From Escherichia phage vB_EcoM_G17, in the sequence record MK327931.1: a DNA stretch of 64,000 nt; one strand, 5' to 3'. Every line of letters starts with the position of its first letter. Position 1 is the first letter of the stretch. This document shows, in pieces, positions 47,581-48,165 of this stretch. Made by a program: the position numbers and the translations under genes. The notes beneath the pieces are model-generated. The model saw nothing but the letters and a program-made list of their open reading frames with translations. It ran no database searches and had not been told where the DNA came from.

Positions 47581-48165
47581 TTATCGTGTTACCTTACTTG
47601 CTTCTACATCACGCTTTTTATAGTACTGATTCCAGATATTGCGGGTTAAACCGTAATCAAGTACTTTAATAAGGCCATTACGATCCTGGCCGATATTCTG
47701 TTTTCTGATATCTCTTATCGTTAGTGTTGATAATGTATCATCAACGTGTTGTAGTGCATCAGCAAAGCGGTGCTGGCGTTCAATGGCATTACGTTTAATA
47801 TTGTACTTTAATTCATTGCACGCGTTTACGTGCTTTACACTGCCTTTACTTGCAGTACTCAACCGATCCATAACGATAAACATATTATCAGGATCGCATA
47901 AATGCATATGCACCTTTGCAAAGTACTGTTTCAATTGAGGGCGGTCATAATCTAAAAAATTCCATACCTTACATTCAGTTTCATTTTGTTCTACACCCGC
48001 ATCACAATTCGCGACCTTGATCACTAACCGATCATTTAAAGCGAATACAATACGGGAAGAACCCGCACCGATGATCTCCAGACCAGCTAACCGACAAGCT
48101 GAAAGGATCTCTTTGTTGGTTTCCATTTCTGACAGGGTACGGATGAATTTAGTATAATTACGCAT
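47581..48165 (-). CDS. Ser/Thr protein kinase-like protein
   Basis: Gly-rich loop IGAGSSRIV with VIKV lysine; catalytic-loop-like DIRKQN and DYG (DFG-like) motif; start trimmed to ATG (MRNYTKF) with AAGGAG SD. Confidence 0.6.
   Translation of the reverse strand: MRNYTKFIRTLSEMETNKEILSACRLAGLEIIGAGSSRIVFALNDRLVIKVANCDAGVEQNETECKVWNFLDYDRPQLKQYFAKVHMHLCDPDNMFIVMDRLSTASKGSVKHVNACNELKYNIKRNAIERQHRFADALQHVDDTLSTLTIRDIRKQNIGQDRNGLIKVLDYGLTRNIWNQYYKKRDVEASKVTR

Follow-up and report, generated by a model that had tools for sequence, protein, structure and literature searches.

The 64,000-nucleotide stretch of the Escherichia phage vB_EcoM_G17 genome analysed here (sequence record MK327931.1, referred to below as the window) belongs to an Asteriusvirus (121Q/PBECO4 group) jumbo phage, with Escherichia phage Sharanji as its best DNA match at 99.1% identity. 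At positions 47581-48165 of the window, on the minus strand, lies a gene for a 194-amino acid (aa) protein which is very probably a kinase-fold phosphotransferase with an intact catalytic apparatus. The coding sequence extends from an ATG at 48165 to a TAA at 47583-47581, and a consensus Shine-Dalgarno motif, AAGGAG, can be read from the sequence on the same strand at 48174-48179. A mechanical listing of open reading frames (ORFs) had offered a longer, TTG-initiated version of 213 aa, which was rejected as the gene because this strong Shine-Dalgarno motif precedes the ATG by 8 nt. The protein, which is basic with a pI of 9.2, shows 100% identity to gp063 of Sharanji (WNN14351.1).

An initial annotation, made from the DNA sequence alone, had placed a Ser/Thr kinase-like protein at these coordinates, leaving the strand unstated, on the basis of four motifs occurring in the order expected for a protein kinase catalytic core. 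The location was confirmed and all four motifs, IGAGSSRIV, VIKV, DIRKQN and DYG, were recovered in that order. Of the 380 ORFs with 50 aa or more in the six frames of the window, this one alone matched the set when it was written as an ordered regular expression, and 200 shuffles of all 380 gave no match; the motif set is beyond chance. No paralogue was found when all six-frame ORFs of the window were searched with hidden Markov models (HMMs) of the family.

The motifs are encoded, all on the minus strand, as follows. The Gly-rich ATP-binding loop I32-G-A-G-S-S-R-I-V40 (aa 32-40; 48046-48072), recognised from the family alignment and an alignment with MKK7, is followed by the beta3 strand V-I-K50-V (aa 48-51; 48013-48024), with the ATP-anchoring Lys opposite the VAIK Lys of MKK7, and by the alphaC segment G57-V-E-Q60-N61-E-T-E64 (47974-47994), which is delimited by conservation and by a modelled helix at residues 55-73. 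The catalytic loop D152-I-R-K-Q-N157 (47695-47712) carries residues aligning with the catalytic HRD-Asp and the metal-binding Asn of MKK4, and D170-Y-G172 (47650-47658) is the equivalent of the Mg-binding DFG motif. Conservation was assessed in an alignment of 69 diverse homologues with a mean column identity of 20%. Seven residues are invariant in it (R38, K50, G57, Q60, E64, D170 and G172), D152 is retained in 68 sequences and N61 in 66, while the Gly-rich loop positions G33, G35 and V40 are kept in 59/69, 62/69 and 63/69, respectively. Positions conserved to at least 90% comprise S36, V40, V48, A52, N61, D152 and G159. Within the jumbo-phage clade, 10 of 11 sequences have N157; across the wider family this position varies, with H/S-W-G coming directly after it. 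The family thus carries the loop signature GxGSSRxV, in which the invariant Arg (R38) occupies the third Gly position of the Hanks motif according to the MKK7 alignment, together with an alphaC signature K-x-A-x-N-x-x-G-x-x-Q-N-x-x-E, where E64 would be the Glu that pairs with K50. The residue set of the protein kinase-like superfamily (ATP-anchoring Lys, alphaC Glu, catalytic Asp and metal-binding Asp) is present, and Hanks subdomains II, III, VIb and VII are represented by K50, E64, D152...N157 and D170-Y-G, which align with MKK4 and MKK7. Since K50, E64, D152, D170 and G172 are strictly kept across a very divergent family, catalysis is favoured over mere binding.

Matches of the single sequence to kinase profiles were weak. 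Against the Pfam Pkinase model PF00069 it gave E = 0.0024 and 17.8 bits, where the gathering threshold is 31.7 bits, and against PF07714 it scored 16.7 bits relative to a threshold of 23.1. Close homologues behaved similarly, with 6/11 matching PF00069 at E <= 1 (best 0.0024, below threshold), and one of 10 distant homologues scanned at E <= 0.01 matched the same model, also below threshold. Scans with NCBIfam and PADLOC gave only generic weak kinase matches (PknB, 0.05; PD-T4-6, 2.4e-4) and assigned the protein to no defence system. Single-sequence matches to the Protein Data Bank (PDB) were likewise weak (E = 0.012), all of them to kinases, and the HMMER alignment set RDIRKQN...DYG opposite RDIKPSN...DFG of MKK4. 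Signals strengthened with family profiles. A profile of 11 close homologues matched MKK4 and MKK7 at about 2e-4 (1.8e-4), colinear from beta1 to DFG+10, and a profile built from the 69 sequences matched MKK4 at E = 5e-5 and also the N-lobe of SteC; the PDB matches of these family profiles were exclusively to protein kinases. For the homologue in phage Muenster, the curators had recorded an HHpred match of 99.9% to 6J5T_M.

An AlphaFold2 model computed with the 69-sequence alignment reached a mean predicted local distance difference test (pLDDT) score of 94.6 and a predicted template modelling (pTM) score of 0.90, while the alignment of 11 close homologues yielded an unusable model (pLDDT 47). 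The confident model is bilobal. Two N-terminal helices (residues 4-12 and 17-26) precede an N-lobe consisting of a beta-sheet and a long alphaC helix (55-73), and the C-lobe contains helices assigned as alphaD (108-120) and alphaE (130-145), the catalytic and metal-binding loops, beta7, beta8 and DYG, after which one short helix (175-182) remains. A Foldseek search against the PDB agreed with a kinase fold. The top fold matches were to aminoglycoside kinases. The initial annotation had called for a structural comparison with kinase folds and had named the lack of a fold match and of a catalytic Asp on alignment as grounds for abandoning its proposal. The fold was found, D152 aligns with the catalytic Asp of MKK4, and the proposed kinase catalytic core is borne out by profiles matching protein kinases and by catalytic residues that are nearly invariant in the homologues.

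The same annotation described the core as compressed into about 195 aa and this, too, is accurate, although the compression is a property of the whole family. The chain ends 24 residues after D170, or 22 after G172, and the short C-terminus is no peculiarity of the G17 protein because the median family tail after the DFG Asp is also 24 residues (range 5-45). Hanks subdomains I-VII alone are present; the activation segment, P+1 loop, APE motif, alphaF with its conserved Asp, alphaG to alphaI and the Arg of subdomain XI, that is subdomains VIII-XI, are absent. The protein is assigned to the kinase-like fold superfamily and to PHROG 4301, and it is not classed as a bona fide Pfam Pkinase member because its score lies below threshold and subdomains VIII-XI are missing. 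The possibility that the next gene supplies the missing C-lobe, making this a split kinase, was considered and rejected: a terminator-like hairpin and a predicted promoter lie between the two genes and the neighbours differ among family members. Tandem-fused homologues also counter it, for in these the next kinase unit begins directly past the short tail. Such fusions were seen in metagenomic proteins with two to four tandem mini-kinase units, P0022 (923 aa), P0033 (782 aa), P0028 (638 aa), P0031, P0041, P0035 and P0032, in which each unit has its own G-loop/Lys and DxG motifs; they may be real fusions or artefacts of gene calling, for example at recoded stops.

The family is large. A profile search of 1.84 billion cluster representatives returned 2,089 proteins at E <= 1e-3 and 253 at E <= 1e-10, corresponding to about 2,000 clusters at 50% identity, and the members are mostly 180-260 aa long, typically about 200 aa, with pI values from 4.5 to 9.8. 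Their source annotations all read "hypothetical protein". No Pfam or NCBIfam model covers the family and none of 10 sampled members reaches a Pfam threshold. The sole named family is PHROG 4301 (function unknown), which the G17 protein matches at E = 1e-41 and 143.9 bits, with residues 3-187 aligned on profile positions 13-184 of 225. Many small phage proteins in BFVD share the fold. Every Asteriusvirus record contains a homologue, at 91-100% identity, and homologues of 36-42% identity are found in other Rak2-like jumbo phages of Klebsiella, Salmonella, Erwinia and Xanthomonas. When searched with the close-clade alignment, 185,579 species-representative genomes of bacteria and archaea gave no match and IMG/VR gave phage 121Q alone, which supports a phage-restricted close clade. 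Five genomic contexts of wider family members were all phage contigs, with neighbours including T4 gp13, sheath protein, endonuclease VII, homing endonucleases and methyltransferases; among these five, no conserved neighbouring gene was found that could encode an obligate partner. Three distant members lie near RNA-repair genes, one (L004, 6001-9967) close to a Pnk-like AAA_33/tRNA_lig_CPD protein, a NUDIX protein and a T4 Rnl1-type ligase, a second (L007, 6001-12511) close to KTI12/AAA_33 and RtcB and a third (L009, 202-6762) close to an RNA ligase. Neither the window nor the close relatives showed a neighbourhood of this type.

Comparison with characterised kinases places the protein apart from each of them. 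With the Hanks-type domain (PF00069/PF07714; best matches MKK4, MKK7, BTK and PknB) it shares colinear subdomains I-VII and a bilobal fold. It differs from that domain in its sub-threshold Pfam scores, in the replacement of the third Gly of GxGxxG by the invariant Arg, in the invariant G..QN..E signature of alphaC, in lacking the HRD His and the conserved Lys at D+2, and in having nothing past DFG+24, so that it is about 70 residues shorter than the canonical domain. The closest parallel in architecture is provided by OspG/NleH (PDB 4BVU, 4Q5E, 4LRJ and 4LRK). OspG has 196 aa and a core limited to subdomains I-VII, its G-loop IGQGSTAEIF looks similar to IGAGSSRIVF of the G17 protein, and it is an active kinase despite lacking subdomains VIII-XI (PMC12756638). 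However, OspG carries DFR plus 39 residues past the Asp, where the G17 protein has DYG plus 24, and it acts in eukaryotic cells and needs E2~ubiquitin, whereas the G17 protein would act in bacteria. Specific homology was rejected, since hhalign of the family profile gave a probability of 2.7% with the G-loop region alone aligned, and no relatedness to OspG/NleH closer than to generic kinases was found by this comparison. The N-lobe structure of SteC (8JBI) gave a weak match to the N-lobe part of the family profile, E = 0.004, and SteC also has a reduced C-lobe (PMC13395416), but it retains an activation segment with the regulatory Ser379 and a substrate-binding alphaF, neither of which occurs in the G17 protein.

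T7 gp0.7 (T7K; PHROG 2828) is a further phage-encoded, early, small kinase-like protein transcribed by host RNA polymerase, features that the G17 protein would share insofar as it is expressed early. In T7K family members a DPV-type motif replaces DFG and the C-terminus holds a shut-off/DNA-binding domain. T7 gp0.7 phosphorylates most host proteins and disarms several defence systems (PMC13645617), and phage kinases have lately grown in importance. The G17 protein differs in belonging to PHROG 4301, in having DYG rather than DPV and in lacking the C-terminal domain. Structural similarity to T7-type kinases was detected in BFVD (E ~3e-6 to 5e-5, TM ~0.55). Homology to gp0.7 was nevertheless rejected: hhalign of the 69-sequence profile gave a probability of 3.2%, and a PHROG scan of the protein yielded 4301 and four weak unrelated families, PHROG 2828 not being among them. 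In these jumbo phages a second kinase, T7K-like and unrelated to the first, is encoded outside the window (Sharanji WNN14432.1), and a T7K-like gene has been reported for Munch and G17 (PMC13645617). For APH(2''), RIO1/RIO2, Bud32 and ArkI, no sequence match to their Pfam families was found. In contrast to the G17 protein they possess substantial C-terminal helical subdomains past DFG, and their substrates differ, being antibiotics, the ribosome/ATPase cycle and tRNA. Of the features that define the APH/choline-kinase class, the protein shows neither a family match nor a C-terminal substrate-binding helical subdomain. The Avs5 anti-jumbo-phage system was set aside as irrelevant, as it concerns Chimalliviridae.

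The genomic position of the gene was examined using blastn, which maps the window reversed onto positions 1-35,263 of phage vB_Ec-M-J, with window position 64000 corresponding to position 1, the annotated left physical end. The direct terminal repeat (DTR) of vB_Ec-M-J spans record positions 1-21525 (21,525 bp) and its inner boundary falls at about window position 43,334; therefore the kinase gene lies inside the DTR, about 4.3 kb within the inner boundary. The part of the window matching this ~21-kb Asteriusvirus repeat is 43334-64000, about a third of the window, and its genes, which all lie on the minus strand and point from the physical end towards the interior, have a median length of ~82 aa compared with ~119 aa outside. 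DTR lengths of 20.7-21 kb are reported for Sharanji and fEgEco12, the latter (20,993 bp) having been confirmed by restriction digests. Placement of the gene in the DTR is common to vB_Ec-M-J, Klebsiella phage Muenster and fENko-Kae01, and to fEgEco12 by coordinates, and in genome records that include both DTR copies the gene is present twice.

The DTR is rich in promoter sequences. Perfect TTGACA-N16-18-TATAAT sites number 13 in the window, all on the minus strand of the gene, against 0.18 expected, and 11 of the 13 fall in the DTR part at 45-64 kb; they span 45089-63635, for example at 46613-46640, 47107-47134 and 49957-49984. An extended motif, AGTACTGTATAAT, clusters in the DTR and is common to most of the perfect sigma70 sites, and short spurious ORFs ("MTVLKCFST...") are translations of the repeated promoter modules. 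Upstream of the kinase gene lies a promoter-like site identified by consensus match, TTGCCA-17-TAAGAT (48194-48222, minus strand), a degenerate version of the early-promoter motif AGTACTG-TATAAT that recurs through the DTR. A terminator-like hairpin with a 12-bp stem (47542-47569, minus strand) begins 12 nt past the stop codon and overlaps the -35 element of the predicted promoter of the next gene (47534-47562). Within 47534-47569 on this strand, the loop and 3' arm of the hairpin hold the -35 TTGACT of that promoter, TTGACT-17-TATTAT with a TG, such that hairpin and promoter form a compact terminator/promoter module. In the related jumbo phage PA5oct, RNA-seq has shown most DTR genes to be early (PMC7318152), and for phage CBB RpoD-type promoters were placed in the small-ORF and DTR region (PMC5259590). 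Because it lies inside the DTR among dense sigma70 consensus promoters, the G17 kinase-like gene is very probably immediate-early, and its transcription by host RNA polymerase early in infection finds good support in the analogy with these phages.

The protein is most likely a catalytically competent minimal protein-kinase-like phosphotransferase, comprising subdomains I-VII and an N-terminal two-helix extension. Our preferred interpretation, to which we assign a probability of roughly 55%, is that it acts as an immediate-early protein kinase, unregulated or partner-regulated, on host proteins for takeover or anti-defence. T7 gp0.7, and OspG with its activity in spite of the missing subdomains VIII-XI, serve as precedents for it. 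As the gene is inside the repeat, a copy would be located at both genome ends and on the first DNA entering the cell, and host RNA polymerase would probably make the transcript within the first minutes from sigma70-type promoters, the gene having its own Shine-Dalgarno motif and a predicted terminator. The N-lobe, with its GxGSSR loop and K50-E64 pair, would bind ATP/Mg, D152 would serve as catalytic base, N157 and D170 would hold the metals, and the gamma-phosphate would be passed to Ser/Thr (possibly Tyr) of host, and perhaps phage, proteins. Lacking an activation loop, the enzyme would either escape regulation and probably show low specificity, or depend on a bound partner, and its purpose may be host takeover or the disarming of defences by analogy with T7 gp0.7. 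The enzymatic activity, Ser/Thr specificity, early timing in G17, protein substrates and biological role, including the action on host transcription or translation suggested in the initial annotation, are all features that we infer.

Several observations weigh against this interpretation. The gathering threshold of PF00069 is missed (17.8 versus 31.7 bits), and the canonical protein-substrate-binding elements, namely the activation segment/P+1 loop and alphaF-alphaG, are all missing. Ser/Thr kinases typically have a Lys at D+2, a position that holds Arg in the G17 protein and shows no conservation of Lys in its clade. The gene's own predicted promoter matches the consensus at 9/12 positions. 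Depletion of Ser, Thr and Tyr is a signature of promiscuous T7-type kinases; in the DTR proteins such depletion was no more than marginal (16.9% versus 19.0%, Mann-Whitney p = 0.052). Literature searches gave no experimental characterisation of any family member. Moreover, OspG and SteC, both minimal kinases, have to be activated by a partner or by phosphorylation (PMC12756638, PMC13395416), so that constitutive activity is not assured.

The absence of all protein-substrate docking elements is also what an active kinase-fold phosphotransferase would show if its substrate were not a protein but a small molecule (antibiotic-like, a signalling nucleotide or a sugar) or RNA, for which aminoglycoside phosphotransferases and the archaeal tRNA 2'-kinase ArkI provide models. 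The basic pI, the aminoglycoside kinases at the head of the fold matches and the RNA-repair genes found within 6 kb in 3/5 distant-member contexts point the same way. However, the pI varies widely across the family, and the RNA-repair neighbours, absent from the window and close relatives, may reflect accessory regions of large myoviruses. Sequence-level matches are all to protein kinases, with no Pfam match to APH, choline kinase or another small-molecule kinase even at E <= 10, and the RDIRKQN catalytic loop resembles RDIKPSN of the MAP2Ks, so that a non-protein substrate appears unlikely. We are similarly doubtful that the protein is inactive or barely active alone, whether as a partner-dependent kinase for which a host or phage protein supplies the missing C-lobe functions, as E2~ubiquitin does for OspG, or as a nucleotide-binding scaffold or decoy that sequesters a host factor. 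Its tail of ~22 residues past DFG is shorter than the 39 of OspG, alphaF, the organiser of the canonical hydrophobic spines, is missing, and OspG and SteC depend on E2~Ub binding and on phosphorylation of S379, respectively; yet the whole catalytic set is strictly maintained in very divergent members, the model is compact and confident without a partner, and the wider family has no conserved neighbour gene for an obligate one.

Chance resemblance of the motifs in a protein unrelated to kinases would accord with the weak single-sequence scores (Pfam E = 0.0024, below threshold; PDB E = 0.012) and the poor 11-sequence model, but it is effectively refuted by the family profiles, the model from the full alignment and the conserved catalytic residues described above. 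There is, in addition, a small chance that the mechanism of the entire family departs from that of canonical kinases, with the C-lobe completed in trans by a host or phage partner, or with a non-protein substrate such as RNA or a defence signalling molecule. The G17 protein would then be an easily studied member, from an E. coli phage, of a large family, as yet without a name, of the smallest kinase-fold enzymes known. If the immediate-early protein kinase favoured here is active, it would help to show how small a working kinase fold can be and would count as a new enzyme of early host manipulation or anti-defence, carried by phages under development for therapy.

The kinase assignment itself is already public and not new. 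CPT_Muenster_043 of phage Muenster is annotated "putative protein kinase", kinase labels are attached to homologues in Munch, SE_PL, K64-1 (RefSeq), fENko-Kae01, ph0011, Turkey5 and fEgEco12, and the PBECO4 protein is named "Protein kinase domain-containing protein" in UniProt. The identical Sharanji protein, WNN14351.1, was described as "another protein kinase, which function is unknown" (PMC11895373). What is added here is the size of the family, its signature, the consistent loss past DFG+24 and the absence from curated libraries, together with the DTR placement and a precise anatomy of the transcription unit. Rak2-like jumbo phages thus combine a T7K-like gene with a second, unrelated mini-kinase in the first-entering terminal repeat, and at present the gene offers a reasonable lead for experiments but is not in itself a discovery.

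Three genes upstream of the kinase gene, at 48770-49024 on the minus strand, the window encodes an 84-aa ParE-like toxin-domain protein (PF24732, E = 4.6e-11, above threshold), for which no antitoxin was identified. A ParE_like gene (L011, 5745-5996) is located directly upstream of P0007, a 52%-identical homologue of the kinase-like protein, and in phage Muenster a "YafQ-like ribonuclease toxin" is encoded two genes upstream of the kinase homologue; this synteny may reflect plain shared ancestry or a functional link.
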